DNA of 64,000 nt from positions 31,291-95,290 of the forward strand of contig CAZVDD010000013.1 in the NCBI GenBank assembly GCA_964626075.1, written 5' to 3'. Under the pieces are notes generated by a model, which searched no databases, was not told where the DNA came from, and saw only the letters and a list, made by a program, of their open reading frames with translations. A program made the translations under genes and the position numbers. Source of the stretch: an uncultured bacterium. Lineage in GTDB: Bacteria; Hydrothermota; Tepidihabitantia; Tepidihabitantales; Tepidihabitantaceae. Below, in pieces: positions 24,440-49,030 of the stretch (within the stretch, counting starts at the first letter, position 1; the number at the start of each line of letters is the position of its first letter).

Positions 24440-25795
24440 ATGAACTACCACGCCCATATCCGGATGCGTCCTCATATGCCCCTTCTAATAATCTCACATA
24501 TTGTGCTCCTCACCCTCCCGGCTGCTGCCACTTACTGGCCCATTCCACCGATAAACCAAGTTCACCCCTTAGGAAACAATTGGGGCAACTACCAGAACTA
24601 CGGTTCTTCCCCCTACTTTCACCCCGGAATTGATATCATCACCACGGACACCAGTGGTGTTGAAGTCCGGGCGGTTGCCCACGGCTGGGTCAAAGCCTGG
24701 GGCACGATTCAAGCAGAACTGCACTACCGACTCGCGGTGTGTGATTCGCCTTTAACCTACTCTGGTCGTGCTGAAGGATGGCTTTACGCCCATATTGACC
24801 CTAACCGCTGGCACAAAAACCTTGGTGATGAGGTGCAAGAAGGGGAAGTCATTGGCTATCTTGTCGCCTGGCCCATCGATGCTTCTTTCGACCATCTTCA
24901 CTTTGCCCGCATCTCCGACACCGGCGCCACCTGGCAGCGTTTTCCCCAACCCACCTGGTGGTTTATACAGAATCCATTGACAATTATTCAACCCAATACC
25001 GACCTTGAACCACCGGTATTTGAAAATGCCCGTACCAACGCCCTTTTTGCCTTCTGCCGCAACAATACCTCAACCTACTTAAATCCCAACAACCTCACCG
25101 GTGATGTTGACATCATCGCGAAAATTTACGATCGCACCGGCTTTTCAACCGGTAATTCAACCTGGGATAAACTCGCACCTTTTCTGATTGAATACTCAAT
25201 TAAAAGTGTCGGAGGCTCGATTGTTGTTCCCTGGACCATCGGCGTCATATTTTCCGGCCGTTTGGAAGATGCCCTTGTCTCGGTAGTTTACAAAAACGAC
25301 AACACCTGCCGCTCTCAGGGTGATTACGAAAACCGTTCTTACTACTACATCGTCACCAACACCGATGGTGACAGCATAATTGAATCTACCGACATTCAGG
25401 GAAAATGGGCAACCGCCGAGGTTGGTGACGGCGACTATTGGGTACTCATCCGCGCCTCTGATGTCGTCGGTAACACAACCGTCGACTCAATGCTTGTTCA
25501 CACTGCCAACGGCGTCGCACTTGCCGAACAAAACTCAACCTTTCTCACCGCACCGCTGCGGGCAACACCGGCAAATGGCAACTGGCAAATTGATTTTGGT
25601 ATCTCCCGAGCCGCACCGGTCCGCTTGACGGTCTTTGACCCGACCGGCAGACAAGTCACAATCCTTGCCGAGCAACAGCTCGCACCCGGCAACCATCGTG
25701 TGTCATTCCGACCCTCGGCTTCTGGTGTCTATTTTGTCAACATGACCGTTGGATTTAACCAGACCTACCAGACAAAACTAACCGTAATAAAATAA
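24440..25795 (+). CDS. Secreted M23-family (LytM-like) metallopeptidase with a T9SS-type C-terminal sorting domain (451 aa).
   Basis: HPGIDI and DHLHF (HxxxD ... HxH) zinc-ligand motifs. Signal-peptide-like N-terminus. C-terminal ~70 aa ...VFDPTGRQV..APGNHRVSF..ASGVYFV..KLTVIK matches Por_Secre_tail-type domains. Confidence 0.7.
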   Translation: MNYHAHIRMRPHMPLLIISHIVLLTLPAAATYWPIPPINQVHPLGNNWGNYQNYGSSPYFHPGIDIITTDTSGVEVRAVAHGWVKAWGTIQAELHYRLAVCDSPLTYSGRAEGWLYAHIDPNRWHKNLGDEVQEGEVIGYLVAWPIDASFDHLHFARISDTGATWQRFPQPTWWFIQNPLTIIQPNTDLEPPVFENARTNALFAFCRNNTSTYLNPNNLTGDVDIIAKIYDRTGFSTGNSTWDKLAPFLIEYSIKSVGGSIVVPWTIGVIFSGRLEDALVSVVYKNDNTCRSQGDYENRSYYYIVTNTDGDSIIESTDIQGKWATAEVGDGDYWVLIRASDVVGNTTVDSMLVHTANGVALAEQNSTFLTAPLRATPANGNWQIDFGISRAAPVRLTVFDPTGRQVTILAEQQLAPGNHRVSFRPSASGVYFVNMTVGFNQTYQTKLTVIK

Positions 25796-27358: not shown

Positions 27359-28615
27359 TTACTCAAGAAAGAAGATGTTGCGTTTGGCGCAAATCTCTTT
27401 GAGCACCTTGGGCCAGACCGTAACCGATACCTCGCCCAGACTTGCGGTCCTAAGCAGATACATATAGGTCCGCGACTGGCCAATACCACCACCGATAGAA
27501 AGGGGCACCCGATCGTTCATAATCGCCTGATGATAGGGCAACTCAAGGAAATGCTCCTGTTTCGCCATCTTCAACTGCTGAACAAGCGTCTCTTTCGTCA
27601 CACGGATACCCATTGAGGTCAACTCGTGTCGTCTTCTTGTTACCGGATTCCAAACCAGGATGTCGCCGTTCATACCGTGGGTCGGCTTTCCGGTCCAATG
27701 GGAAGTGTCGGTAATCCAGTCGTCGTAGTCGGCTGCCCGCATCTCATGGGGCAACCCATCAGCCAGCGGATAGCCAATACCGATGATGAAAACCGCCGGC
27801 GCATACTCCTGAAGCAGTTTGGTCTCCCGCTGCTTTCGTGGTAAGTCCGGGTACATCTCAAGAATCTCCTCGGCGTGGATGAAGGTCAACTCTTCAGGAA
27901 TGGGCGGATACTTTGTCGTGCGCAACTCCGGAAACTGCTCCTGAACCAGGTGAGATGCTCCCACAATCACCTTCCAGATTTTCCTTACGACATCCTTAAG
28001 ATAATCAAGGTTCCGGTCCTGCGCAGTAATAACCTTCTCCCAGTCCCACTGGTCAACATAAGAGGAGTGGTCGTGGTCCAGGAAATAATCTTTCCGCACT
28101 GCTCGCATATCGGTGCAAATCCCTTCACCTACCTTGCACCCAAACTGCGCCAGCGCCAACCGCTTCCACTTGGTCGCTGCCTGAACAATCTGAGCGTTGA
28201 TTCGTGGGGAAATGCCCAGTCCACAGGGAAATTCGACCGGAGTCCTGGAACCATCCCGGTCCAGATAGTCGTTGACCCCTGACTCCCGCTCCACAATCAA
28301 GGGCACCTGAACCATATGCAGGTTCAGTTCCCGGCACAGGTTCTTCTCAATGTACTCCTTGATCATAAAGAGCGCGTCCATCCGTTTTAGCGGCGGTAGA
28401 ATCGGCTCGTAATCGGTGGGTAAAATTTTCTCCACCTCTTCATAGGTGCCGACACCTGGACCGGCTAAATCGGCTCGCTTCTTATCCAGAAGCGTCGGTG
28501 CTGCGCTCTTGAGCGAGGCTTTCTTCGGTATCTTTTTTGCCACTTTTTTCTTAGTGACTTTTTTCACCGTCTTGCGTGCGGTCTTCTTCACCGCCTTTTT
28601 CTGCTTTTTCTTCAT
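27359..28615 (-). CDS. asnA: Aspartate--ammonia ligase (asparagine synthetase A) with a ~75 aa N-terminal extension, including a 40 aa lysine-rich histone-H1-like tail.
   Basis: Core aligns to E. coli AsnA (SSYVDQWDWE, GDILVWNP, SMGIRV, IGGGIGQSR). ATG at 28615 preceded by AAAGGAG Shine-Dalgarno. N-terminus MKKKQKKAVKKTARKTVKKVTKKKVAKKIPKK. Confidence 0.85.
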   Translation of the reverse strand: MKKKQKKAVKKTARKTVKKVTKKKVAKKIPKKASLKSAAPTLLDKKRADLAGPGVGTYEEVEKILPTDYEPILPPLKRMDALFMIKEYIEKNLCRELNLHMVQVPLIVERESGVNDYLDRDGSRTPVEFPCGLGISPRINAQIVQAATKWKRLALAQFGCKVGEGICTDMRAVRKDYFLDHDHSSYVDQWDWEKVITAQDRNLDYLKDVVRKIWKVIVGASHLVQEQFPELRTTKYPPIPEELTFIHAEEILEMYPDLPRKQRETKLLQEYAPAVFIIGIGYPLADGLPHEMRAADYDDWITDTSHWTGKPTHGMNGDILVWNPVTRRRHELTSMGIRVTKETLVQQLKMAKQEHFLELPYHQAIMNDRVPLSIGGGIGQSRTYMYLLRTASLGEVSVTVWPKVLKEICAKRNIFFLE

Positions 28616-29022: not shown

Positions 29023-29943
29023 TTATCGGGCAAGTTTGCGGGCAAGCTGAATCGCTGCCAGCGTAGAGTGGTGTGATGCAATGCCCTGGCCCGCAATGTC
29101 AAAGGCAACGCCGTGCAGCGGAGACGTGCGCACCGCTTCTAAACCAAGGGTCACATTCACCCCCCTCCCCTGTGAGAGCAGTTTTGCCGGAATCATCGCC
29201 TGGTCGTGATACATCGCCACGAATCCATCAAAATCATCCAGATGGGCGAAAATGGCATCCGCGGGTATGGGACCGAATGCCGCTACCTTTTTCTTCTGTG
29301 CCGATTTAACACCGGCTTCAATCCGCTTTTCTTCACCAGTAGAGAACTCCCGCCCGTGCGGATTGAACGCCAAAACCGCAATCTTAGGTTGCGCGCCGTG
29401 TCGGAATCGTTTGGGGGCTTCTCGTCTCAAAAATTCGTCAATGAGCAGTATCTTCTCCTGCACCGCTCGGGCTGTAATCAACGGCGCAACACGACCCAGA
29501 GGCACATGGATTGTTACAAAAATCACCTTGAACCGCCTTGACCAGGCAAGCATCGCATAACGCCGAGCCCTTAACCGTTGGGCAAGAAACTCAGTTTGCC
29601 CCGGAAACGGAAAACCGGCAAGCCGCAGCGCCTCTTTGGACACCGGTGCAGTAACAAGGGCGCCAATCGTACCGTTTCTCAGTAACTCCACCCCTCTTTC
29701 CAGCGCGCGCCACGCTGCAACACCACAACCTTTCTGCACCCTGCCGTACTCGTATTTACCAACCGGCCCAGTGTCTATCACCCCAACCCCATCATAGTTA
29801 ACCTTCAGCCGTTTTGCCTCCCACTTCAACACCTCTTCCGAACCGATGAGCAAAATATTTCTCCGCTCGGTTTCCTGAACAGCCCGCAACACCGTTTCCG
29901 GACCAACTCCTGCCGGGTCGCCAAGGGTAATACCGATCTTCAT
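29023..29943 (-). CDS. pdxA: 4-hydroxythreonine-4-phosphate dehydrogenase family protein (PdxA/PdxA2 family, 306 aa).
   Basis: N-terminus IGITLGDPAGVGPE typical of the PdxA family. Confidence 0.75.
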   Translation of the reverse strand: MKIGITLGDPAGVGPETVLRAVQETERRNILLIGSEEVLKWEAKRLKVNYDGVGVIDTGPVGKYEYGRVQKGCGVAAWRALERGVELLRNGTIGALVTAPVSKEALRLAGFPFPGQTEFLAQRLRARRYAMLAWSRRFKVIFVTIHVPLGRVAPLITARAVQEKILLIDEFLRREAPKRFRHGAQPKIAVLAFNPHGREFSTGEEKRIEAGVKSAQKKKVAAFGPIPADAIFAHLDDFDGFVAMYHDQAMIPAKLLSQGRGVNVTLGLEAVRTSPLHGVAFDIAGQGIASHHSTLAAIQLARKLAR

Positions 29944-29944
29944 C

Positions 29945-30826
29945 TCAGTAATGGCTCAATGTGCCGGAACGCCGGGTCCGGCGGTCAATCAACATAAAAA
30001 CAAACAGCCCAAAACCAACCCACAACAGAGATAAAAGCCCGAGACGAACAAAGGCATCACTTAAGGTGAAATCAATCTTCTCGCCCATCAGAAAGTGGCG
30101 GGCGGTCAATATCCCATAAGTTGTTGGTACAAACAGCGCCAGTTTCTGCAAAAACACCGGTAAAACCGCCAGCGGATAGGCAATCGGTGTAAGAATCATC
30201 AATATGCTGGATAGCGCCTCACTCACCAGCCAGCCCTGCTTAAAAAGCAGGGTAAAACTTGCCATAAACATCCCGATGCCGTAAAGTGCCACCAGCATCA
30301 ATCCGATAACCAGCAATGTTGGCAGCAGCCCCAGGGGGTTGATTTTCAGGCTGAAAACGAGCAGGATAAAAACAATCTGCACCGCAATCATCAACAACTG
30401 GTGCAAAATTGAGTGCAGCGCCATCCCCATACTGAAAACCCAGCGGGGCACCGGCGCCGCAAATACCGATTCCAGCGTTCCGTAGAACTGCTCCTTCCTC
30501 AGACTGAACCCCATCGCCCACAACGCCATATTGAGGAACCCGATAAACAGATACCCCAGAGTAATAAATGTAACAATGTCCGAGGTGCCAACGAGGTTTT
30601 GTAAACTTGCGGACTCCCTGCCGCCAACCAGTGCAATCCCGTAGAGAAGATAGGGAAGGAGGTAAACCACCGGGTCAATTAAACCGCGGGCAAAGTCCGC
30701 CTTGTAGGTCAACTCCAGTTTCCACTCCTTGATATTTTCTGCCCAGACCGCAGCACCATAATGGCGCAGCAACCGAATCACTTTATGAACTCCCCTTCCC
30801 GTGGAAACTGTTTCATTACAATTCAT
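29945..30826 (-). CDS. ABC-2 type transporter permease (293 aa).
   Basis: Six predicted TM helices with ABC-2 topology. Operonic with an ABC ATPase. Confidence 0.65.
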   Translation of the reverse strand: MNCNETVSTGRGVHKVIRLLRHYGAAVWAENIKEWKLELTYKADFARGLIDPVVYLLPYLLYGIALVGGRESASLQNLVGTSDIVTFITLGYLFIGFLNMALWAMGFSLRKEQFYGTLESVFAAPVPRWVFSMGMALHSILHQLLMIAVQIVFILLVFSLKINPLGLLPTLLVIGLMLVALYGIGMFMASFTLLFKQGWLVSEALSSILMILTPIAYPLAVLPVFLQKLALFVPTTYGILTARHFLMGEKIDFTLSDAFVRLGLLSLLWVGFGLFVFMLIDRRTRRSGTLSHY

Positions 30827-30828
30827 CT

Positions 30829-31659
30829 TTAATGCATCCCCACTGTGCCGTCGCGCCGGGTCTTTTTCTCAAGATAAACAAAAAGAAAATAGCCAGCGGT
30901 CAAAAGAATTGCGTCCATCACCAGTAAAATCAAAACCGTCTGCCATAAGTTAACCTCCGACTTATTCAACAAAATAATCCCTCGAATCGCAATCAGAGCC
31001 CAAGTAAGGGGAATCAATGTGCTCACCATTGCGGTAATCGGGTTCACCTGCACCGGATACCGAATTGGTGAAAACAGAAAAAATATCCACTCTAAGGTAT
31101 GAACCCAGCCATGGACCTCTTTAATCAATAGTGTGAAACCGGCAAAGGCAATGGCAAATCCGTAAAACCCAATCATCAAGAGCCCGACCAGCAGGATAAT
31201 GGGCAGAACCTTGTCAATGGTAAACCGCACGCCAAAGAATATGCTGATTATCGTCGCTTGAAACACCGCCATCACCGTTGACCATGCCCACTCGGCTAAT
31301 GTCTTGCCGATTAAAATCACCAGCGGGTGCGTCGGCGACGCGATGATGTATTCCATCGTTCCCCAGTAGGTCTCCTCGCGTAGCGAATTTCCCACCCCCC
31401 AAAGTGCGGAAAATACAAAAGTCGAAATCATCGCACCAATCAGCACAAACGCCAGATAGTTTCCCGAACCGGTTAACTGCCGGAACGATTCGCTTGTTGC
31501 CCCGCCCACCAGCGCCCTACCCTGAAAAACATAGGGCATCACCCAGATGAGCGGAAAGATTGCCCAGAAGAAAATCATTATCGGATAGGACAACCAGATG
31601 CGCACCGTCTTACCAAACTCGGCACCCAGCGCCCGCAGTTCCACTCCCGGTGCCCGCAT
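30829..31659 (-). CDS. ABC-2 type transporter permease (276 aa).
   Basis: Multi-TM protein, paralogous in topology to the adjacent permease. Confidence 0.65.
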   Translation of the reverse strand: MRAPGVELRALGAEFGKTVRIWLSYPIMIFFWAIFPLIWVMPYVFQGRALVGGATSESFRQLTGSGNYLAFVLIGAMISTFVFSALWGVGNSLREETYWGTMEYIIASPTHPLVILIGKTLAEWAWSTVMAVFQATIISIFFGVRFTIDKVLPIILLVGLLMIGFYGFAIAFAGFTLLIKEVHGWVHTLEWIFFLFSPIRYPVQVNPITAMVSTLIPLTWALIAIRGIILLNKSEVNLWQTVLILLVMDAILLTAGYFLFVYLEKKTRRDGTVGMH

Positions 31660-31663
31660 CGCT

Positions 31664-32668
31664 TCACTCCTCGGTTGTATCCGCCGCCAGCGAGGTACCG
31701 GTCATATAGATAAACACATCCTCCAGCGTTGGTTCCTGAACATCAATCGTTAAAATTTTTGCCCCGGTCCGCACCAGTTCAATCACATCGCTCAAAATCC
31801 CTTCGGCGCGCGGGGCAAGAATCTTCACTGTTGTCACCCCATCCTGGCTATCGGCGCTCAACCGCTCCACGCCGGGCAGCGACTTTAATCGGCTGATGTC
31901 CACCTCCCCCTGACAGCGCACCGAAAGAACCTCTTTGTGAGGAATGTCCCGCTTGAAATCCTCCGGTGACTTAATGTCAACAATCTTACCCCGGTTGATA
32001 AAGGCAATCCGCTCGCACAACTCATCCGCCTCATCCATATAGTGGGTTGTCAAAAGAATCGTCTTTCCCTGTTTTTGATTCAACTCCTCCTTGATAAACT
32101 GCCGGATGAACCGGCCAAACTGCGGGTCGAGCCCAAGTGTCGGCTCATCCAGAAGTAGAAGTCGCGGGTCGTGCAGCATCGCCCGCGCCAGACTCACCTT
32201 CTGCTTCATACCCGAGGAGTAGCGCTCGAGCCGCTCATTTGCGACCTCTTTCAGCCCTAACAGTTCCAGCAGATAGTCAATCCGGCGGTCGCGCTCCTTT
32301 CCTGACAGTCCGTAGAGAGCGGCAAAGAACTTAAGATTGTCCCGGGCCGAAAGTTTCCAGTAGAGCGTCCGCTCCCCCGAAGTCAAAAGCCCGATTTGCT
32401 GGCGGCAGAACAGTGTATCCTTAAAAACATCGTGCCCAAACAGCCGAATTGTCCCCTCATCAGGAATCAAAAGCGTGGCGATACAACGCACCAGCGTCGT
32501 CTTTCCTGCGCCGTTCGGTCCCAGCAATCCAAAAAGCTCTCCGGCGCGCAGGGATAGCGTCGCGCCATCCAGCGCCCTTAATGTCCGCCGCTTCAACCCT
32601 TTACCGCGCCGAAACTTCTTCACCACATTCTGGCACTCAAGTGCCGTTGTCCAACTATCTGTGCCCAT
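31664..32668 (-). CDS. ABC transporter ATP-binding protein, ABC-2 exporter type with a C-terminal extension (~334 aa).
   Basis: Walker A GLLGPNGAGKTTL, signature YSSGMKQKV, Walker B LLLLDEPT. Start reassigned to the ATG at 32668 (MGTDSW...). The ORF-track N-terminal extension is R-rich and unsupported. Confidence 0.8.
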   Translation of the reverse strand: MGTDSWTTALECQNVVKKFRRGKGLKRRTLRALDGATLSLRAGELFGLLGPNGAGKTTLVRCIATLLIPDEGTIRLFGHDVFKDTLFCRQQIGLLTSGERTLYWKLSARDNLKFFAALYGLSGKERDRRIDYLLELLGLKEVANERLERYSSGMKQKVSLARAMLHDPRLLLLDEPTLGLDPQFGRFIRQFIKEELNQKQGKTILLTTHYMDEADELCERIAFINRGKIVDIKSPEDFKRDIPHKEVLSVRCQGEVDISRLKSLPGVERLSADSQDGVTTVKILAPRAEGILSDVIELVRTGAKILTIDVQEPTLEDVFIYMTGTSLAADTTEE

Positions 32669-33776
32669 TTTTTCTTTCCGCCGCGGTGTGCGATAGCATC
32701 TTTTCAATATTATCCGCCGCACTATCCCAGGTCCACTGCCGCGCCCAATCAACCGCCTGAACCCCAAGCCGGTTTCGGAGCGCCTCGTCCTGTAAAAGCC
32801 GGTCAATCTTCTCTGCCAGCTCCGTCACATTGCCATAAGTGTAAAACAGTCCGTTGACACCTTCACGCGAAGAGTCCACCAGACCCGGTGAACGGGCAAC
32901 AACCACCGGTGTGCCGCAACCGTTTGCCTCCATCACAATCAACCCCCACCCCTCCTTGATTGAACTCTCAACCAGCAGCGCACTGCGTCGGTACCAGTTG
33001 ACCTTCTCTGCCTCGGAAACAAAACCGGTAAAGACCACCGTATCCTGTATCCTCAGTTTCTCACTCAATTCCTTAAGCCGGGGCAAATCATCGCCGGTTC
33101 CTACCACCACCACCTTGAACTGTCGCCCTCGCTCCTTCAGAATCCGTGCCGCATAAAGCAGATGGTCGGTTGACTTGTATTTCTTCAACCGTCCGACATG
33201 AAGCACCACCGGCTCCCGCGCCACCGTTGGGTCGGGTTTAAACTTCTCAAAGTCTGTCCCCGGTGGCACAACGGTAATCATCTCGGGGGCGATACCAATC
33301 CGGACCACATCCCGCTTTGAACTCTCCGACAGCACGGCAAAGCGACACCGCTTATACGCCAAAGGAATCATACTCTCGGCCAGGTAAACATAAGCGGCCA
33401 GCGGTGCAACAACCTCCTTAAAAATACTCCCCCGAAAAAGATGCATCAAAAGCACCGCCACCGGCTTATTTACAAACCAGGGCGAATAAAACGGAATCTT
33501 GTTCAAATCATCCACCACCACATCGTAATCGCCTGCCGCGACAACACGGGGCAACTGGCGGTAAACGGTGAAATTAAAAGTCCACTTTCCACCCCGGCGC
33601 AATACTCTTATCCCATCGATATCCTCTTCGGGCGCTGAACCTTTGAACCGTTCACACAGAAGCGTCACCTCATGCCCCCGCGCCACCAGCCGCCGAAAAA
33701 CCTCTTGCAAGTAAACCTCGGCGCCGCCTGCCTCTGGGTTCTGAATACACCGCCAGTTGACAACCAGTATGCGCAT
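32655..33776 (-). CDS. Glycosyltransferase family 4 (373 aa).
   Basis: GT-B retaining GT4 features (N-terminal MRILVV..GGAE, C-terminal EGWGLIVMEANGCGTPVV). Stop overlaps the ABC ATPase start. Confidence 0.8.
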   Translation of the reverse strand: MRILVVNWRCIQNPEAGGAEVYLQEVFRRLVARGHEVTLLCERFKGSAPEEDIDGIRVLRRGGKWTFNFTVYRQLPRVVAAGDYDVVVDDLNKIPFYSPWFVNKPVAVLLMHLFRGSIFKEVVAPLAAYVYLAESMIPLAYKRCRFAVLSESSKRDVVRIGIAPEMITVVPPGTDFEKFKPDPTVAREPVVLHVGRLKKYKSTDHLLYAARILKERGRQFKVVVVGTGDDLPRLKELSEKLRIQDTVVFTGFVSEAEKVNWYRRSALLVESSIKEGWGLIVMEANGCGTPVVVARSPGLVDSSREGVNGLFYTYGNVTELAEKIDRLLQDEALRNRLGVQAVDWARQWTWDSAADNIEKMLSHTAAERKNGHR

Positions 33777-33784
33777 TGACTCTT

Positions 33785-33813
33785 ATCTTAAACCGATTAC
33801 CCATTTCGGTCAA
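33785..33813 (-). promoter_or_regulatory. Leaderless-type promoter for the GT4-ABC operon (minus strand: TTGACC, 17 nt, TAAGAT, 8 nt, ATG at 33776).
   Basis: Read on the reverse complement. Confidence 0.4.
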
Positions 33814-33822
33814 GCCCGTGCC

Positions 33823-33851
33823 TTGCCCGATCGAGAACCCTGGTCTATAAT
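33823..33851 (+). promoter_or_regulatory. Leaderless-type promoter (TTGCCC, 17 nt, TATAAT, 6 nt, ATG at 33858).
   Basis: Perfect -10 TATAAT at 33846-51. Divergent, back-to-back with the previous promoter. Confidence 0.5.
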
Positions 33852-33857
33852 AGCAGT

Positions 33858-34223
33858 ATGTGCCTCAACTGGACCAAAAAACAGTTCTTGAACTGGCTGC
33901 TCCTCGGCATCGGCTATCTCCTTTCACCTTTGTCCTGGTGGAACGACCTGTTTATCAACCTTCCTCTTGCCTATCTTTTCGCCTGTCTTTTCTCCCTTTT
34001 CTCGCCCCGGATTTTCACCCTTGCCATCATCGCCGGTTACTGGCTCACCAACATCACCGGCTTGCTTCTCATCCATCTTGCCGCGCTGCGTTTTGCTGGC
34101 GTCAAACGCCTTAACCGGCGTCAGTGGTTGATCAACGGTCTTATTACTGCCGGTTACAGCCTCCTTATTTTGCTATTGGTCATGCGCCGCATCCTCAAAC
34201 CATTCTGGCTCTACCAGCGTTGA
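33858..34223 (+). CDS. Small integral membrane protein (121 aa, ~3 TM). Function unknown.
   Basis: Hydrophobic profile only. No YbaN PTTPF motif. Confidence 0.45.
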   Translation: MCLNWTKKQFLNWLLLGIGYLLSPLSWWNDLFINLPLAYLFACLFSLFSPRIFTLAIIAGYWLTNITGLLLIHLAALRFAGVKRLNRRQWLINGLITAGYSLLILLLVMRRILKPFWLYQR

Positions 34224-34255
34224 CTTTCCAGTTGCCGTTAAGAAAATAACTTTCG

Positions 34256-35008
34256 ATGATCTGGCTCCTGATTCTGGCGATTCTCCCCGGCGTCGGCCTG
34301 ATGCTTTTTTTCTACTTCCGGGACAAATACAAAAAAGAGCCCTTCGGACCCATATTTCTCGCTTTCCTTTTGGGCGCAGTTGTTACCCTGCCGGCATCCG
34401 CAACATCTTCCCTTGTGCAGCGTCTCACCGGCTGGTTCAGTCCCCCTTTTACCATTACAAAAATCTTTCTCGGCGCCTTCATCGTCGCTGGTCTGATAGA
34501 AGAGTTCTGGAAGTTCTTTGTTGTCCGGTTCTACTGCTATCACCGCCCGGAGTTCGATGAACCCTACGATGGCATTCTTTACGCCACCGCCGTGGCGCTC
34601 GGTTTTGCCACTCTGGAAAACATCATCTACATCTTCGGTACAGCTGCGTTCAGCGGACTGCGCACCGGCGTAATGCGTGCCTTACTCGCGGTTCCGAGCC
34701 ACGCCTTCTACGGCGTCTTAATGGGCTACTTCCTCGGTGAGGCAAAATTTGCCCCAACCGAAACCAAGGCAAATCTCCTCGGGCTCTTCGGGCTCCTTTT
34801 GGCAATCTGTGCCCACGGCGTATACGACTTTGTCGTCGTCGCCCTTGCCCAGCGCCCGCTCCTTATCGGCAGCCTCATTGTATTTTCAGTCCTCGTCTGG
34901 GTGGTATTTTTCGAACTCACCCGGCGTCAGGCAGAACAGTCTGCTCACCAGTCGCCAAGACTCGCCGCACTGAAAAAAGGTCCACCGCCCGACGAACCTT
35001 CTCGCTGA
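34256..35008 (+). CDS. prsW: PrsW-family intramembrane metalloprotease (250 aa).
   Basis: FRDKYKKEPF, GLIEEFWKF and HAFYG..MGYFLGEAKF motifs typical of the PrsW (YpdC) family. Confidence 0.7.
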   Translation: MIWLLILAILPGVGLMLFFYFRDKYKKEPFGPIFLAFLLGAVVTLPASATSSLVQRLTGWFSPPFTITKIFLGAFIVAGLIEEFWKFFVVRFYCYHRPEFDEPYDGILYATAVALGFATLENIIYIFGTAAFSGLRTGVMRALLAVPSHAFYGVLMGYFLGEAKFAPTETKANLLGLFGLLLAICAHGVYDFVVVALAQRPLLIGSLIVFSVLVWVVFFELTRRQAEQSAHQSPRLAALKKGPPPDEPSR

Positions 35009-35025
35009 TTATTAAAAACAGTTGT

Positions 35026-35053
35026 TTGACACCTCTTGGGGCGTGGTTAGTAT
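35026..35053 (+). promoter_or_regulatory. Leaderless-type promoter (TTGACA, 16 nt, TAGTAT, 6 nt, ATG at 35060).
   Basis: Read directly. Confidence 0.45.
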
Positions 35054-35059
35054 CAACTG

Positions 35060-36052
35060 ATGAACAAACAACTCTGGCCGCTAATCCTGGCGGTGGTTAA
35101 TTTAGGACTGTTCACAATAAACGGATGTAAGAAACCCCTTTTAGTTAAAGACCGGGCGGAAACGATTCCGCCCGGCGCGGTAAAGATGCAACCGGAAATG
35201 GATTCGTTCCCTCCAATACTGTTCTCTAACGAATGGGAGCCACCCGTGCCAATGCCCGGACCGGTGAATACCGCCGGCGCTGAGGATTCCCCATTCATCA
35301 CCCCGAACGGTACTGAGTTCTACTTCGTTTTTACGCCCGATGTCTCCGTCCCGGTGGAAAAACAAGCCGCCGACGGCGTTACCGGTATATGGTATTGCCG
35401 GCTGGAAAATGGTCATTGGACCGAGCCGGAGCGCGTGATACTTAACAACGACATTTCGCTTGATGGAGCGCAGTTCGTAATGGGCGACACAATGTGGTTT
35501 GCGTCCGTACGGCCCGGTAACTATGGCGAAATTGACTGGTATCTGGCACTCCGCCGCAATGGTAAATGGGGTAACTGGCGCAACGCCGGCAGGCAGATAA
35601 ATAAAGAACTCAAGCCCGGCGAACTCCACATCAGTGCCGACCATAGCACGATGTACTATGGCAAAACTGGCATTCACGGTGGCCTTGACATCGTTCGTTC
35701 CCAACGCACTCCGTCCGGCTGGGGCGAGCCAGTTAACCTTGGGCCACTGGTAAACAGCGCCCGAGATGAAGGTCAGCCCTTTATATCATCAGACGACAAA
35801 GAGTTGTGGTTCACCGGCTGGACTGACAGCTTAGTTGGACCGTGCGTCTACCGATGCCGGAAAGACAGCACCGGGCGATGGCAACCGGCAGAGCTAATCG
35901 TCGGTCAATTTGCCGGCGAACCTACCCTTGACGACGCCGGCAACCTCTACTTTGTCCACCATTTTTACTCCGGCGGCGACTCCTCGCGGATGATTGAAGC
36001 CGACATCTACCTCTGCCGTCGCAAAACCGCTCTTTCAAAAATCATTAGGTAA
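35060..36052 (+). CDS. Lipoprotein with PD40/TolB-like beta-propeller repeats (330 aa).
   Basis: Lipobox LFTINGC. Repeated PFITPNGTEFYF / PFISSDDKELWF / DDAGNLYFV motifs characteristic of PD40 (WD40-like) repeats. Confidence 0.55.
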   Translation: MNKQLWPLILAVVNLGLFTINGCKKPLLVKDRAETIPPGAVKMQPEMDSFPPILFSNEWEPPVPMPGPVNTAGAEDSPFITPNGTEFYFVFTPDVSVPVEKQAADGVTGIWYCRLENGHWTEPERVILNNDISLDGAQFVMGDTMWFASVRPGNYGEIDWYLALRRNGKWGNWRNAGRQINKELKPGELHISADHSTMYYGKTGIHGGLDIVRSQRTPSGWGEPVNLGPLVNSARDEGQPFISSDDKELWFTGWTDSLVGPCVYRCRKDSTGRWQPAELIVGQFAGEPTLDDAGNLYFVHHFYSGGDSSRMIEADIYLCRRKTALSKIIR

Positions 36053-37034
36053 TCATCGGCTCGCCCGGTATTTCACAGGTTTCTGAAGTGTGCGTCTCAA
36101 GCCAACTCAGCAACTCTTTGAGGCTTGCCGTGGCGAGACAGATTGAAGTATCCGCGGCGCCATAGTAAACCCGTAAGGTGTCGCCATCCGGTTCCAGCAC
36201 CGCACCGCACGGAAAGACAACACTGGGCACATCACCTACCCGCTCGTAAGGCTTCACTGGACCGAATATCCATTCGCTGCTCCGGCGCACACAGCGCCAG
36301 GGTTGCTCTAAATCCAGTAGCGCGAGACCAACCCGGTAAATTGCACCGCTGGGGGTATCTTTCACCCCGTGATAAAAAATTAGCCAGCCGTGCGCTGTTT
36401 CCAGGGGCGGTGTTGCCAGCCCAACTCGACTGGCATCCCACCAGGCACCCTGCCGTGCTGGCATTACCAGATGGTGTCTACCCCAATGAATCAAATCCGG
36501 TGACTGGGAGATATAGATATGCGCTCCGAGCGATGTCGTGGGCCGATGAACCATCAACCAGTACCCGTTGAACCGCCGGGGTAAAAGTGCCGCATCCTTA
36601 TCTGCCGGCGGCATCACCACGCCCAACCGCTCGTACTCCTTGAAATCTTTGGTCAACGCCAGTCCAACAGCCGGACCTGCCCGAGAATAGGCGGTGTAGG
36701 TAACTGCATACTTTCCCAGTTCCTCAACATAGGTGATGCGCGGGTCTTCAACCCCCCACAACTCTTCCGGAAATCGGCTGGGGTCGGGCGCAAAACTCGG
36801 CTCCGGTTCAATCTCCCAGTTGTCAATCCCGTTAGCGGAACGGGCAACGCATAAGTGCGAAATCCCGCGCCGGTCCTCAACCCGGCACAAAAGCAAGGTT
36901 GCGCCGTCGGGCAACAACACCGCGCCCGGGTTGAACACGGTGTTAACCGTATATGGCCAGTCAGCCGCGGTCAGTATCGGGTTCTTTTCCCAGCGCCGGA
37001 GTAACAACTGCCGGTCCTGTTCAATGTGCCTCAA
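36045..37034 (-). CDS. Glycoside hydrolase family 130 protein (beta-mannoside phosphorylase/hydrolase-like, 329 aa).
   Basis: GVEDPRITY, YTAYS, NGYWLMVHRP, HGWLIFYHGV, VVFPCG and VYYGAADT motifs match GH130 5-bladed propeller enzymes. Confidence 0.75.
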   Translation of the reverse strand: MRHIEQDRQLLLRRWEKNPILTAADWPYTVNTVFNPGAVLLPDGATLLLCRVEDRRGISHLCVARSANGIDNWEIEPEPSFAPDPSRFPEELWGVEDPRITYVEELGKYAVTYTAYSRAGPAVGLALTKDFKEYERLGVVMPPADKDAALLPRRFNGYWLMVHRPTTSLGAHIYISQSPDLIHWGRHHLVMPARQGAWWDASRVGLATPPLETAHGWLIFYHGVKDTPSGAIYRVGLALLDLEQPWRCVRRSSEWIFGPVKPYERVGDVPSVVFPCGAVLEPDGDTLRVYYGAADTSICLATASLKELLSWLETHTSETCEIPGEPMIT

Positions 37035-39292
37035 CCTTCCTCCGTTGTCTGCGCTGTCCGCATCGTCAAGAGGGCGCCGATAAACGACAGTGTTGCCTCT
37101 GCCCCTTCATTGCCATTCACCCCGTCGGGATGCAGCCCATCATGGCAGCCACCGGTCGTGTAGTCGTAAATCGGTAAACCGAGGTCGTTGCGTCCCAAAT
37201 ACCACTCAAACGCCCGGCGCATCTCCTCGCGCCACTTGGGCTCCCGGGTGCTCAAAAATGCTTGATAGCACGCCTCCACTGTGCACTCTGCCTCAATCGG
37301 CTGCTGGTCAAACCGCAGCCGCGCTGTTCCCCGCCGCCATCCCGTATGTGCGACCGGTACAAAGTGCCCCTGCTCCGCAGTCTGCACCGCTATCAACCAT
37401 CTTAAAGAATCCAATCCGGCATCAACCATCTCTCTTTTTCCCAGTTCCCGGCCGGCAACAATCAGCGCCTCGCTCAATCGGGCGTTCGCATAGGCAAGGA
37501 CCGGTTCAAACCAGCGCCAATCTTCAGTAGCGTTGCGCCGGTAGAGGTCGAGCAGTCTTTCCGCCAGAACCTCGCGAAATCGCCGGGCATTACTGTCGCC
37601 CGGAAAACGCCGGCTATAAGCACATAACCCCAGCAAGGTGTAAGCCCAGGCGCGCGGGCTGGTAAAAAGTTCCACCGCGGGCAAACCCGAGGCAAACAAA
37701 TTCATCGCCAGCGCCACCACCCCGTCCTCACTTGCCGAACTTACCGCATAACCCAGCGCCCATAGCGCCCGACCCTGACTGTCTTCCGAACCCGCCTCCT
37801 CAGTCCAGCGCCGTTCATAACTCAAAAAATTCCGAAACCGGCTGTTGTCCCGGTTGAAGGCAAAATCGAGAAACGCCAGATAGCGCCGGACCAGCCGATT
37901 GAGAAAAGGCTTATCCGCCGCCACCTCCTGTGCCCTGAGTACCATCAAAAGCGCCCGGGCGTTGTCGTCCGTTGTATAACCTTCAGCAAGATTGGGCACG
38001 GTGCGCCGGGCATGCTGCAGGATTCCGGTGTCATCGGTCAAGGTCAAAAGATGATTCAAGTTCAACTCCGGCAGGTCGATGTCTAACGGGTCAGCACTGC
38101 CCATCACCGGTGCCACCGCAAGCGGCGCCCGCATCCGCTCCTCGGCGGCACGCTGAAACGAGTTCAAATAGACGCGGGCAACCTCCTTCCAAACCATCAT
38201 TCTTCCAAAGGCGTAGGCACGCTTGCGCATCGAATGGCGCTCGGTTTCATTTTCAAACAATCCGATAATTGTTTCCGCCAGCGCCTTTGAATCGCGAAAC
38301 GGCACCAGTCTTCCCCTGCCTTCCGCCAGCATCTCCTCCGCATACCAGTAAGGGGTTGACACCACCGCCTTACCAACCCCCATTGAATAGGCAAGCGTTC
38401 CGGAAACAATCTGCGCCGGATTGAGATAAGGTGTCACATAGATGTCGGCCGCGCCGAGAAACTGGCACAACTCCTCCAGCGTGACAAACTGATTGTAAAA
38501 TATTAAATTCCGGTCTACCCCTTGCTCGCGTGCCCGTCTTTGCAGGCGCAGCCGGTACTCCTCACCCTGTTCCCGCTTCACATGGGGGTGGGTGACACCG
38601 AGCACGATGTAAACCACATCAGGAAACCGGGCGGCAATCGCCGGCAGGGCGTCAATCATATATTCGATACCCTTGTTGGGTGACAAAAGCCCAAATGTGA
38701 GAATCACCCTTCGGCCCTCAACCCCGAACAAATCCTTGTAGTAGTTCGGGTCAACAAAAGGCATATCCGGAATCCCGTGATGGATAAAATCAATCTTTTT
38801 CTCCGGCACCTGGTAAATCTCTTTTAAAAACCGCACCGCCCGCTCACTCATCACCACGACCCTTTCCGAAATCCGGCAAATCTCCTCCATAACCGAGCGC
38901 TGCTGTTCATTCGGTTCGGCAAGAACCGTATGCAATGTCGTCACAATCGGCATCCGCAACCGGCGCAGCGTTACCAGGATATGCCCGCCCGCGGGCCCGC
39001 CAAATATCCCGAACTCATGCTGAAGACAGGTCAAGTCAACCCGGGTCATATTGAGAAACTCTGCCAGTTGCCGGTAATAATCCTGATTGTTCTGGGCGAC
39101 CTCGAACTTCACCTCCTCAGGATAAGGGTAACCATCCGGCGTATCGTTCAACGCCACAACCAGCCCGTTCAACTCCGGCGCTTCCTGAGTAACCGAATGG
39201 TAAAGGTCTGAGGTAAAGGTGGCAATCCCGCACTTCCGCGGCAGATAAGTTCCAATAAACGCTATCTTCTTAAATAGATACGGACCACGCAT
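37031..39292 (-). CDS. Bifunctional-type protein (753 aa): an N-terminal GT4 glycosyltransferase (~400 aa) fused to a C-terminal ~350 aa (alpha/alpha)6-toroid-like (six-hairpin glycosidase-like) domain.
   Basis: N-terminal half has GT4 features (LSPNKG, GT-B fold). C-terminal half shows repeated aromatic-rich helix pairs (DDNARALLMVL, ALWALGYAV, AWAYTLLGL, VLAYANARL) typical of six-hairpin folds. Shine-Dalgarno GAGGTGA upstream of the ATG at 39292. Confidence 0.6.
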   Translation of the reverse strand: MRGPYLFKKIAFIGTYLPRKCGIATFTSDLYHSVTQEAPELNGLVVALNDTPDGYPYPEEVKFEVAQNNQDYYRQLAEFLNMTRVDLTCLQHEFGIFGGPAGGHILVTLRRLRMPIVTTLHTVLAEPNEQQRSVMEEICRISERVVVMSERAVRFLKEIYQVPEKKIDFIHHGIPDMPFVDPNYYKDLFGVEGRRVILTFGLLSPNKGIEYMIDALPAIAARFPDVVYIVLGVTHPHVKREQGEEYRLRLQRRAREQGVDRNLIFYNQFVTLEELCQFLGAADIYVTPYLNPAQIVSGTLAYSMGVGKAVVSTPYWYAEEMLAEGRGRLVPFRDSKALAETIIGLFENETERHSMRKRAYAFGRMMVWKEVARVYLNSFQRAAEERMRAPLAVAPVMGSADPLDIDLPELNLNHLLTLTDDTGILQHARRTVPNLAEGYTTDDNARALLMVLRAQEVAADKPFLNRLVRRYLAFLDFAFNRDNSRFRNFLSYERRWTEEAGSEDSQGRALWALGYAVSSASEDGVVALAMNLFASGLPAVELFTSPRAWAYTLLGLCAYSRRFPGDSNARRFREVLAERLLDLYRRNATEDWRWFEPVLAYANARLSEALIVAGRELGKREMVDAGLDSLRWLIAVQTAEQGHFVPVAHTGWRRGTARLRFDQQPIEAECTVEACYQAFLSTREPKWREEMRRAFEWYLGRNDLGLPIYDYTTGGCHDGLHPDGVNGNEGAEATLSFIGALLTMRTAQTTEEG

Positions 39293-39335
39293 AACCGTTC
39301 ACCTCAAACCCTTTTTTATCTCTCATTTAATATCC

Positions 39336-39364
39336 ATTTTAGTCCCACCGTTAAGGAATGTCAA
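39336..39364 (-). promoter_or_regulatory. Promoter of the GT4-fusion/GH130 operon (minus strand: TTGACA, 17 nt, TAAAAT). Leader ~37 nt with a Shine-Dalgarno.
   Basis: Read on the reverse complement. Same TAAAAT -10 as two other promoters in the window. Confidence 0.5.
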
Positions 39365-39689
39365 CATATGTAACTCTAAACCCCTATGCGCCACCGCGTT
39401 AGGGCAAACCCGGCAACCAACTTTTGCCCCGGACCACCGCTATCACCTATTAGACCCCAACCGAAGAAAAAATTAACGCCCTTTCTCCTAACTGATTGTC
39501 AGTCCATAGGTTAACCGTATAGGATACGGTCCCCTGACCCGTTCCGGGGACTGCTTCTTACACCCTGACCTGTTTCTGTACCGGCAGGTTTTGATAGCCA
39601 ACCGCACCAATCCCGGTAAGTTACCCGACTTGCGCGCTGCGCCCGCCAATTTCACCCAACCACCGATACTTTTTTGGGCAACAAGCTGG

Positions 39690-41896: not shown

Positions 41897-42613
41897 CTAT
41901 TCAAAAATCCGTTCCACCGCCTGGTCTTCAACCCAGCCGCCTATACCACCCGGAATCTGAATCAACACAAACCCGGGCCGGCGCTCAACAATCTTGACCT
42001 CCAACCCATCGTGCACCGCGGCGATCTCCTTGTACTCTTCACCCGGTCCGGAGCGTAAAATCGCCTCAGCCACCACCACCACCGCCTTTGCCCGATTGAC
42101 CATACCTTGCCAGATTAGCGCCCCGGCACCAAAGTAGAGAAAAACAACTGTTAACCCGATTGCCCCATAACCCAAAAACTTTTTGCCCGTGCTCAGATAG
42201 AGCCCGAGACAAAGCGCCAGGACGAAAAACAAAAACCCGGCAAGAAAACGGGTTGTCAATCGGTCAAACGGTGTCAGGAGATTACGCACCGTTGTTGTCA
42301 ACGGGCTTTCCGGATTGGGATTTTTATCCGGTCGGAAGTTGCGCACAAAGGCGATGTTGCTCGTTATGTCCGGGTCGTGCGGCTTGAGCGCCCAGGCACG
42401 GAGATAGTCCGCGAGCGCCCTGCCCAACCTACCTAACTTGAAATGGGTATTGCCCCGATTGTAATAAATCTCCACCGCCGCGGCCTCCTGCGCCGCCGAG
42501 TCGTAAAGGACAATGGCATCTTCAAACCGTCCTGCCTCGTAAAGTTTGTTTGCCCGTTCCAACTGTTCAACCGGTAGTGCAAACACCAATATCAGCGTCG
42601 CAAGTAAACTCAT
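41897..42613 (-). CDS. batE: BatE-like TPR plus SH3b-domain protein (238 aa).
   Basis: N-terminal TPR, central TM, C-terminal SH3-like region. Terminal position in the Bat operon. Confidence 0.55.
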   Translation of the reverse strand: MSLLATLILVFALPVEQLERANKLYEAGRFEDAIVLYDSAAQEAAAVEIYYNRGNTHFKLGRLGRALADYLRAWALKPHDPDITSNIAFVRNFRPDKNPNPESPLTTTVRNLLTPFDRLTTRFLAGFLFFVLALCLGLYLSTGKKFLGYGAIGLTVVFLYFGAGALIWQGMVNRAKAVVVVAEAILRSGPGEEYKEIAAVHDGLEVKIVERRPGFVLIQIPGGIGGWVEDQAVERIFE

Positions 42614-44367: not shown

Positions 44368-44368
44368 C

Positions 44369-46030: not shown

Positions 46031-47010
46031 TACACCAGCCTCCGGTTGATAACCATCCCAAAACTAAATCCGGCAAATGTAAATATCAAGCCGAGAAGTA
46101 ACGGCAGCGCCATCCGCTCCTGATACAGCGTATAACGCCGGGCTTTAAAGGTCGAAGGTTCCAGCCGGTCAATCTCTTCATAAACCCGCTTCAGCGCCTC
46201 CGGGTCGGTGGCAAGAAAGAACTTGCCACCGGTAATCGCGGCAATCTTCTCCAGCGTCTCGGTGTCAAGGTCAACCTCCACCTGAACATACCGCCTGCCA
46301 AAGAGCGGGTCGTCAACCGGAAACGGTACCGGACCCTTACTGCCAACCCCAATCGTGTAAATCTTAATACCCAGCGCCGCTGCCGCCTGCGCTGCGGTCA
46401 AAGGGTCGATATCGCCCGTGTTGTTGCGGCCATCGGTCAAGAGGATAATCACCTTTTCCCGCGCCTTCGACCCCTTGAGCCGCGCCGCGGCACTGGCGAT
46501 GCCCATTCCAATTGCGGTGCCATCTTCCAGCGTGCCAAACTCCACCCGGTCCAAGATGTCGTTGACAATACTATGGTTCAGCGTCAAGGGACACTGGGTT
46601 AAACTGGTTGCGGCAAAAATCACCAGGCCGATGCGGTCCCCGGTTCGGCGGTTGACAAACTCCTTTGCCCGCTCCTTAGCAACGGTGAGGCGGTCTTTGG
46701 GCAGAAAGTCTGCCGCCTGCATCGTACCCGAAATGTCCAGACAGAGCATAATGTCAATCCCCCGGGTCTCCAGTTCCTCAAACATCCGTCCCTTTTGCGG
46801 TCGCGCCAGCGCCAGCGTGGAAAACACCAGCGCCAGCGAATAACAGAAAAGGGGCAACTGCGTCAGCACCTGCTCGAAAACCGTCGGTGCCGGCAGCAGG
46901 GTCGTGTCACTAAACTGCAGGCAACTGCGCCGGCGCTGGCGCTCCCACCACCACAAAATTGGCACCAGCGCCAGAAGTGCCAGATAACCCGGATGCGCCA
47001 GATGCCACAT
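46030..47010 (-). CDS. batA: BatA: von Willebrand factor A domain membrane protein (326 aa).
   Basis: Two N-terminal TM helices. VWA MIDAS DIMLCLDISGTM. Confidence 0.7.
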   Translation of the reverse strand: MWHLAHPGYLALLALVPILWWWERQRRRSCLQFSDTTLLPAPTVFEQVLTQLPLFCYSLALVFSTLALARPQKGRMFEELETRGIDIMLCLDISGTMQAADFLPKDRLTVAKERAKEFVNRRTGDRIGLVIFAATSLTQCPLTLNHSIVNDILDRVEFGTLEDGTAIGMGIASAAARLKGSKAREKVIILLTDGRNNTGDIDPLTAAQAAAALGIKIYTIGVGSKGPVPFPVDDPLFGRRYVQVEVDLDTETLEKIAAITGGKFFLATDPEALKRVYEEIDRLEPSTFKARRYTLYQERMALPLLLGLIFTFAGFSFGMVINRRLV

Positions 47011-47013
47011 CGC

Positions 47014-49025: not shown

Positions 49026-49030
49026 CGTCT

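Follow-up and report, generated by a model that had tools for sequence, protein, structure and literature searches.

The 10-kb region at positions 29,023 to 39,292 of a 64,000-nt stretch of contig CAZVDD010000013.1 (assembly GCA_964626075.1; the whole stretch is referred to here as the window) carries ten genes which very probably represent three units, inherited independently and brought side by side in one lineage, and not one system. Unit A consists of a glycosyltransferase family 4 (GT4) gene, the genes of an ATP-binding cassette (ABC) exporter with two ABC-2 permeases, and a gene for a PdxA-family dehydrogenase. Unit B comprises three genes coding for a small membrane protein, a PrsW-family protease and a PD40 lipoprotein. 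Lastly, Unit C is made of two genes coding for a 753-aa fusion protein, named here FUS, and a glycoside hydrolase family 130 (GH130) enzyme. The three units merely adjoin in one sub-clade, because they separate outside the sub-clade in which the fusion proteins are at least 81% identical. Unit C forms a cassette of two translationally coupled genes that is complete in itself and occurs in many phyla, and both of its proteins appear from their sequences to be cytoplasmic. We consider the whole explanation, three units together with this reading of Unit C as a cassette, to be probable on balance.

Results and discussion

Three units that part outside one sub-clade

An alignment of fusion homologues was used to scan one genome per bacterial species, and at least 594 stretches coding for the fusion were confirmed. 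The best 80 of these, from at least 12 phyla, were analysed as fusion loci, and 11 contigs labelled candidate division WOR-3 completed the comparison set (loci are designated by L numbers). Synteny was scored by tblastn (E 1e-5, at least 50% coverage) with 14 query proteins taken from the region and its flanks. Fusion homologues in the 80 loci shared 51–80% full-length identity and came from phyla including Acidobacteriota, Verrucomicrobiota, Chloroflexota, Planctomycetota, Desulfobacterota, Bacteroidota, Fibrobacterota, Zixibacteria and Hydrogenedentes.

GH130 alone among the 14 query proteins recurred with the fusion. Where at least 1.2 kb of downstream sequence was available (72 loci), 66 loci had a GH130 gene no more than 6 kb from the fusion; it stood directly 3′ on the same strand, at about 60% identity, in 39 loci and within 6 kb in 27 more. 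The first-pass annotation of the window had regarded the GH130 and the fusion as a functional pair, and this recurrence in at least 12 phyla bears it out. Homologues of PdxA, the ABC-2 permease, PrsW, the ribokinase and the FSA/transaldolase-family protein (TAL), the last two encoded upstream of the fusion gene, were found in none of the 80 loci. De novo clustering of the 1118 open reading frames (ORFs) of the fusion loci gave the same picture, the fusion being present in 75 loci and GH130 in 60, followed by an extra GT4 in 11. The next clusters, which contained a Crp-type regulator, Ysc84, response regulators, OmpA and a radical SAM protein, were rejected as further co-conserved partners, being lineage-specific neighbours in Acidobacteriaceae. 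The neighbours of the pair were usually unrelated genes, in many cases on the opposite strand, and no mannose-activation gene, transporter or regulator was co-conserved around it in the 80 loci.

Within WOR-3, the full arrangement was kept only where the fusion was at least 81% identical (L081–L084, 81–95%). The order there is ribokinase, TAL, fusion, GH130, (PD40), PrsW, (DUF7980), GT4, ATPase, two permeases and PdxA, with the genes in brackets variably present. At 68–72% fusion identity, the WOR-3 contigs carried the pair alone with its 4-nt overlap retained, in one case between gyrA and ribosomal protein genes and in the other between TonB and peptidase genes. In L001, where the fusion is 80% identical, all of the genes that flank the pair in the window were absent. 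The overlap of the two reading frames measures 4 nt in the window, L081, L084, L090 and L091, and 8 nt in L082. Conversely, five further contexts of Unit A (66–69% identity) contained no fusion, GH130 or PrsW within 9–10 kb. The upstream PfkB gene, coding for a ribokinase, and the TAL gene were also considered as members of a mannoside unit and rejected, since they are linked to the fusion only in the sub-clade of at least 81% fusion identity.

The first-pass annotation had described the whole region as one envelope-glycan or glycolipid locus, in which the GT4 enzymes and GH130 build a mannose-containing product that the ABC-2 transporter exports. Its genes do adjoin in the window and in relatives with a fusion of at least 81% identity; glycosyltransferase-type genes occur in both Unit A and Unit C, and the exporter stands beside a GT4. 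Against this, the units part outside the sub-clade, no exporter accompanies the pair in the 80 loci, the two units are divergently transcribed and parted by an unrelated, variably present trio, the pair is predicted to be cytoplasmic, and the ATPase is without a carbohydrate-binding domain of the Wzt type. Co-conservation in relatives had been proposed in advance as the check on a single locus, and the genes were found not to be co-conserved. A single locus is thus very unlikely, and synteny comes close to refuting it. The proposed export of the product of the pair likewise found no support, as FUS and GH130 are without a signal peptide or membrane segment and no exporter travels with them.

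Unit C: the GH130 enzyme

The gene for GH130 (36,045–37,034, minus strand) starts with TTG and codes for 329 aa (Pfam GH130, E 1e-60). The first-pass annotation had placed it before the fusion gene, but transcription runs from the fusion to GH130, the TGA stop codon of the former overlapping the TTG start codon of the latter by 4 nt (TTGA). The nearest relatives of solved structure were TM1225 (2e-60) and UhgbMP (6e-54), with Uhgb_MS also among them. The two best NCBIfam models were both those of beta-1,2-mannobiose phosphorylase, although the scores lay far under the cut-offs (211 bits against 550); the BT3780 model scored 71 bits.

In order to assign activity and linkage, we relied on the residue criteria compiled for GH130 phosphorylases in Table 2 of Li et al. 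2020 (PMC7660257). In the reference enzyme UhgbMP these are the proton donor D104, the phosphate-binding R168 and H231, and positions 59, 103, 150 and 304 of the +1 subsite (PMC7660257). The beta-1,2-mannosidases of the family differ from the phosphorylases by a second carboxylate that serves as general base (E227 in BT3780). The signature residues mapped to R51, E96, D97, K146, R164, H222 and D295 of the window protein. More specifically, D97 is the proton donor, lies in an E-D-P-R motif when aligned to UhgbMP and TM1225, and did not vary in any of the 36 close or 33 distant GH130 proteins linked to a fusion. The phosphate-binding R164 and H222 were invariant in all 69. The +1 subsite R51-E96-K146-D295 reads R-E-K-D, the beta-1,2 pattern, whereas beta-1,4 enzymes have R-Y-R-D; the signature residues were invariant in 35–36 of 36 orthologues, K146 in all 36. 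A Kyte-Doolittle scan of the N-terminus, MRHIEQDRQLLLRRWEKNPILT, revealed no hydrophobic segment and no signal peptide. Overall, GH130 is predicted from these residues to be a cytoplasmic beta-1,2-mannoside phosphorylase.

This enzyme has its family, proton donor, phosphate-binding Arg and His, R-E-K-D subsite and lack of a signal peptide in common with Teth514_1788/1789, Lin0857 and Uhgb_MS, and an N/D-K-D motif with the last of these. In overall sequence, however, the beta-1,4 enzymes TM1225 and UhgbMP are nearer to it than the beta-1,2 enzymes (1e-41 to 1e-49). The context also differs: known beta-1,2 phosphorylases are accompanied by sugar ABC importers, GH5 and mannose-1-phosphate guanylyltransferase, and here the partner is a fusion of a GT4-like and an (alpha/alpha)6 domain.

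Some loci carry an extended form of the cassette (L020:12293-15755, L022:5135-8646 and L010:5550-10198), in which the fusion is followed by a canonical GT4 of about 340 aa, a short GH130, a long GH130 and sometimes a GT4-like gene. Two GH130 genes also stand side by side in Thermoanaerobacter (PMC4264767). The long GH130 (about 485–490 aa), which substitutes for the shorter protein in many loci, keeps the beta-1,2 pattern, and its N-terminal extension of 170–260 aa had no Pfam match. The short second GH130 of these clusters has Arg at the position of K146, which is the beta-1,3 pattern.

Unit C: the fusion protein

The fusion gene (37,031–39,292, minus strand) is preceded by a sigma-70-like promoter, TTGACA-17-TAAAAT, at 39,364–39,336 on the same strand. 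This site, reported in the first-pass annotation and located again here, agrees with 11 of 12 consensus positions; it is a consensus match only, and the promoter rules of WOR-3 may differ from the sigma-70 consensus. In public annotation the fusion is simply a ‘glycosyltransferase family 4 protein’. Pfam GT4 families covered residues 1–390 and no family matched beyond, and hydropathy analysis gave neither a signal peptide nor a membrane segment. The C-terminal domain was modelled confidently, with a pLDDT of 87 in the full-length model. Since GT-B matches dominated the Foldseek comparison of the full-length model, the C-terminal domain was modelled again alone, with a pLDDT of 91.

The N-terminal domain (residues 1–399; 38,096–39,292, minus strand) is a GT4-like GT-B domain that matched Glycos_transf_1 (E 2.5e-17) and Glyco_transf_4 (E 2e-8) in Pfam. 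The best Foldseek matches of FUS were the GT4 structures MshA, PimB′, BshA and PimA, and PimA was the nearest solved sequence to the GT4 domain (3e-14). In PimA, E274/E282 form the E-x7-E motif and R196/K202 the phosphate-binding pair. A single alignment with FUS showed canonical GT4 motifs in PimA, in the other GT4 of the window and in the GT4 proteins of the extended clusters. In the fusion family, FUS included, the canonical residues are replaced and K207 is the only residue of the phosphate-binding Arg/Lys pair to be retained. The paralogous GT4-like gene of the extended clusters (L009:12174-13508 and L010:8978-10198) has an SGTLA motif in common with FUS.

The C-terminal domain (residues 400–753; 37,031–38,095, minus strand) had no Pfam or NCBIfam match even at E values up to 10. 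The structure model indicates an (alpha/alpha)6 barrel, whose family has neither a name nor a Pfam model, and the glycan-type fold proposed for it in the first-pass annotation was thereby upheld. At the sequence level its only solved relative was YPO2471 of Yersinia pestis (PDB 7tem). This stand-alone protein, labelled ‘putative exported’, is 20% identical to the domain, and our literature search found no paper on it. The family comprises 4840 representative clusters, with both stand-alone and fused forms. Its invariant residues are mostly carboxylates (D442, D443, E667, D710, D718 and E732) together with Trp and Asn, and E503 is conserved to at least 90%.

An (alpha/alpha)6 domain beside a GH130 recalls the pathway in which mannobiose epimerase, an AGE-family 2-epimerase, acts with mannosylglucose phosphorylase. 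The catalytic His residues of AGE enzymes are paired in the latter half of the barrel. No invariant His occurs in the C-terminal two-thirds of the FUS domain, the conserved residues being carboxylates, Trp and Asn. The domain also gave no match to the GlcNAc_2-epim Pfam family even at E 10, its sequence identity to AGE proteins is only 12–14%, and its true sequence relative is YPO2471. The partner GH130 has R-E-K-D (beta-1,2) and not the R-Y-R-D (beta-1,4) of mannosylglucose phosphorylases. We consider an AGE-type identity extremely unlikely and rejected it, the likeness being one of fold with neither a family match nor the His pair. A carboxylate-rich site without a conserved His pair therefore favours a glycosidase or transglycosylase type over an AGE-type epimerase.

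What Unit C might do

Three known systems suggested to us, by likeness, how the cassette might work. In mycobacteria, ManT, which is an alpha-(1→4)-mannosyltransferase, and the hydrolase MmpH function in recycling methylmannose polysaccharide (PMC9883506). ManT is a GT4 and MmpH an (alpha/alpha)6 enzyme, and these are separate proteins there but fused in FUS; the mycobacterial system has methyltransferases and no GH130, whereas Unit C is the reverse, and MmpH is not the closest fold neighbour of the FUS C-terminal domain. In Leishmania, mannogen is a cytoplasmic beta-1,2-mannan reserve that is built and degraded by enzymes of GH130 fold and mechanism (PMC8950772, PMC12814180). These GT108 enzymes form a separate, eukaryotic family for which no GT4 or (alpha/alpha)6 partner has been described.

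The cyclic beta-1,2-glucan synthase Cgs unites a GT84 transferase, an (alpha/alpha)6 cyclization domain and a GH94 phosphorylase in one protein. Cgs is membrane-bound and built from GT84 and GH94, whereas Unit C is predicted to be cytoplasmic and uses GT4 and GH130. The transferase and phosphorylase of Cgs share one beta-1,2-glucan linkage, which a retaining GT4 and an inverting GH130 cannot. We know of no bacterial mannogen, and our literature search found no description of a GT4-GH130 pairing or of bacterial beta-1,2-mannan synthesis by such a cassette. The fusion–GH130 cassette thus joins known enzyme classes in an arrangement that we did not find described.

By analogy with these systems, we tentatively propose, with rather less than even confidence, that Unit C serves in the cytoplasm to build or recycle beta-mannosides. 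The three activities would act in the cytoplasm on one endogenous oligosaccharide containing beta-mannosides. From an activated sugar, the GT4-like domain would make a primer or cap with an alpha linkage, GH130 would reversibly add or remove beta-1,2-mannose by way of mannose-1-phosphate and phosphate, and the carboxylate-rich (alpha/alpha)6 domain would cut or transglycosylate the chain. In its fullest form, this proposal makes the cassette a widespread but undescribed bacterial pathway that would synthesise and phosphorolytically recycle a beta-1,2-mannoside, either an equivalent of mannogen or a mannosylated solute of a new kind, by means of a new (alpha/alpha)6 family and a GT4-derived domain without canonical nucleotide-sugar motifs. 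We regard this fullest form as possible but on the unlikely side.

Several points weigh against this account of the region and of the cassette. The tblastn thresholds may miss very divergent small proteins such as DUF7980 and PD40, and six of the 72 fusion loci had no GH130 nearby. The FUS GT4 domain is without the E-x7-E motif (Q294...Y302 instead) and without the phosphate-binding Arg (Leu201 instead), and may therefore be something other than an ordinary nucleotide-sugar transferase. Because GT4 enzymes retain configuration and GH130 enzymes invert it, formation and cleavage of one and the same bond cannot simply be divided between the two. For bacterial GH130 enzymes, it has been argued that their weak transferase activity may lack a physiological role (PMC12814180). 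Lastly, in Fibrella rubiginis HMF5335 (L080:10001-18971) SusC-like and SusD-like genes come after the fusion and a long GH130 on the same strand, a hint that an imported glycan is catabolised. This strain is a cultured Bacteroidota isolate, and its locus offers the only context resembling a polysaccharide utilisation locus among the loci seen.

Catabolism is the main rival to the cytoplasmic cycle. In this alternative the pair salvages imported beta-mannosides, such as fungal or yeast mannan or N-glycan fragments. The same scheme, which we consider unlikely both as a whole and in the roles it assigns, would have GH130 release mannose-1-phosphate, the (alpha/alpha)6 domain act as a glycosidase and the GT4-like domain serve as a retaining phosphorylase or in sugar re-use. 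All characterised bacterial GH130 phosphorylases have been given catabolic or salvage roles (PMC7660257, PMC4264767), and family GT4 includes retaining phosphorylases (PMC8950772). A donor free of nucleotide would agree with the loss of the ribose-binding Glu from the FUS GT4 domain, and the SusC/SusD genes after the pair in F. rubiginis point the same way. Nevertheless, the SusC/SusD adjacency is a single case, the flanks of the pair are usually unrelated and often on the opposite strand, and no transporter, mannanase or regulator is co-conserved in the 80 loci. Identities of 51–60% across phyla over 750 aa suggest a constraint of housekeeping type rather than niche foraging. The cytoplasmic cycle on an endogenous beta-mannoside remains the reading that we tentatively prefer.

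Unit A: a GT4 coupled to an ABC-2 exporter

Unit A is a core operon of WOR-3 in which a GT4 is coupled to an ABC-2 exporter of DrrAB/NodIJ type and to PdxA. All of its genes lie on the minus strand. A promoter-like site found by a promoter scan (33,813–33,785) precedes the gene for a canonical GT4 of 373 aa (32,655–33,776; Pfam Glycos_transf_1, E 1e-38). The ATPase gene follows at 31,664–32,668, with an ORF that extends to 32,806. Its start is most likely the ATG at 32,668 (M47, giving 334 aa) rather than the TTG at 32,806, because the orthologues have 335–347 aa and an overlap of about 13 nt with the GT4 gene. Two different ABC-2 permeases are encoded at 30,829–31,659 (276 aa; Pfam ABC2_membrane, E 8.5e-7) and at 29,945–30,826 (293 aa, about six hydrophobic segments; E 6e-14), and the gene for the 306-aa, NAD-dependent PdxA-family dehydrogenase (29,023–29,943; Pfam PdxA, E 2e-77) begins 1 nt past the stop codon of the latter.

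The grouping of GT4, exporter and PdxA in one operon, as the first-pass annotation had it, was borne out: the block GT4-ATPase-permease-permease-PdxA was intact in all seven WOR-3 contexts that show the full block, and the flanks all differed in the five contexts from outside the sub-clade. PdxA followed the permeases in L082, L084, L086, L087, L088, L089 and one more WOR-3 locus. The listed homologues of the GT4, which has the G-R-x5-K and E-x7-E motifs and is predicted to be cytoplasmic, were 61–100% identical, and all the named ones belonged to WOR-3. For the permease at 30,829–31,659, only 216 homologues were found and every named one listed was again from WOR-3; that at 29,945–30,826 matched the DrrB subfamily weakly in NCBIfam. 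In L085:10001-12200 (CP070680.1, a 3.26-Mb WOR-3 chromosome), two permeases are followed by a 105-aa PdxA fragment with no GT4 or ATPase called upstream, which reflects either decay of the operon or frameshifts in the assembly.

The first-pass annotation had likened the exporter to Wzm/Wzt or TagGH. We rejected this identity, since the ATPase is of DrrA/NodI type with a DrrA1-3_C domain, the two permeases differ from one another and there is a single GT4. The best models for the ATPase were DrrA, GldA and NodI; it scored 279 bits with TIGR01188 (drrA), under the 312-bit cut-off of that subfamily, and E values of about 1e-49 with the NodI models. No Wzt or TagH model was among its 25 best NCBIfam models listed, and no Wzt_C domain was found in Pfam. 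The setting of a polysaccharide locus, namely an initiating phosphoglycosyltransferase and several polymerising transferases, was not seen; the flanks were unrelated housekeeping genes in every context. Unit A resembles DrrAB/NodIJ exporters in its ATPase, DrrA1-3_C domain and ABC2_membrane permeases, and differs from them by two distinct permease genes, one of a family whose listed members, where named, are all from WOR-3. The signal exported by NodIJ is glycolipid-like and is the product of adjacent transferases. The natural guess is that Unit A exports a small glycoconjugate, and we assign this role putatively.

The part played by PdxA is evenly balanced between a role in the operon and that of a plain vitamin B6 enzyme, 4-hydroxythreonine-4-phosphate dehydrogenase, in a mixed operon, in which case an envelope role of the GT4 and ABC-2 genes would be a separate matter. 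In E. coli, pdxA sits in the mixed surA-pdxA-rsmA-apaGH operon. The equivalog score of the window protein is near the threshold (TIGR00557, 271.3 bits against a cut-off of 290.35), and no sugar-acid kinase of DUF1537 type adjoins; with the D-threonate-4-phosphate dehydrogenase model it scored 191 against a cut-off of 583. However, PdxA stands directly after the permeases in all seven full-block contexts despite changing flanks, and among solved structures it is slightly closer to PdxA2/D-threonate-4-phosphate dehydrogenase (3e-51) than to E. coli PdxA (4e-39). PdxJ, the partner enzyme in the B6 pathway, had no match among the 40 ORFs, of 59 in the 64-kb window, that were scanned against Pfam.

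Unit B: variable envelope genes

The three genes between Units A and C lie on the plus strand and constitute variable envelope housekeeping. The first (33,858–34,223) codes for a 121-aa membrane protein recognised by hydropathy, which had no Pfam or NCBIfam match in library scans; its identity as DUF7980 comes from the precomputed annotation of its counterpart in L081 (PF25937). The second (34,256–35,008) codes for a PrsW-family intramembrane protease of 250 aa (Pfam PrsW-protease, E 1.7e-39; NF033739, 176 bits against a cut-off of 225) and adjoins only in the close relatives L081–L084. The third (35,060–36,052) codes for a 330-aa lipoprotein with a PD40 beta-propeller, recognised by its repeats. 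Its N-terminus, read from sequence, has a hydrophobic stretch ending in Cys (LGLFTINGC), and it is in part similar to the propeller region of CHU_0125 and PorE proteins. Its gene converges on that of GH130, the two 3′ ends overlapping by 8 nt. The PD40 gene is present in the window and L081 and absent in L082 and L084; DUF7980 is absent in L084.

DUF7980 proteins were also seen at no more than about 3 kb from the GT4/ABC-2/PdxA operon, in a different arrangement, downstream and on the far side of a TPR protein, in L089:15661-16020 and one more locus, which hints that DUF7980 is loosely linked to Unit A. Elsewhere in the window (24,440–25,795, plus strand), an M23 peptidase has a sorting domain for type IX secretion. 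This domain, with the PorE/CHU_0125-like PD40 protein, suggests that the organism has a type IX secretion system.

Gene calls and surroundings

All ten ORFs of the region were present in the ORF list at the coordinates and on the strands given by the first-pass annotation, and Pfam and NCBIfam profile scans, on which our domain assignments rest, supported its gene order and domain assignments apart from the points discussed above. Near-identical or identical homologues of the window proteins are labelled candidate division WOR-3. Base composition is uniform along the window, tRNA and Rfam scans found no feature in it, and the remainder consists of housekeeping genes.

The gap between the TAL and fusion genes (39,293–39,689) is 397 nt long in the window and 553 nt in L081, and only 54–65 nt in L082 and L084; the gap in the window had no Rfam match. 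Further upstream (41,897–50,032, minus strand) lies a complete operon of Bat/MoxR type, coding for TPR-SH3, BatD, two VWA/BatA, DUF4381 and DUF58 proteins and an AAA_3 MoxR ATPase, which also adjoins the fusion locus in L081 and L082. On the other side of the region, the AsnA ORF (27,359–28,615, minus strand) opens with a lysine-rich tail, MKKKQKKAVKKTARKTVKKVTKKKVAKKIP, and its Pfam match is confined to residues 81–326; the tail is either a real basic N-terminal extension or the result of a wrongly extended start.

Conclusions

The single envelope-glycan locus is very probably not a real system, and effort on it is thereby spared. The GT4/ABC-2/PdxA operon looks like a WOR-3 trait at the level of the phylum; WOR-3 is known here from metagenome assemblies only. 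What remains as a lead is a cassette of two genes, strongly conserved and present in hundreds of genomes at species level (at least 594 stretches). If its product is indeed an endogenous beta-mannoside, the cassette would provide the first anabolic or storage role for bacterial GH130 enzymes, define a new family of carbohydrate-active enzymes, and offer new catalysts for the chemically difficult synthesis of beta-mannosides.

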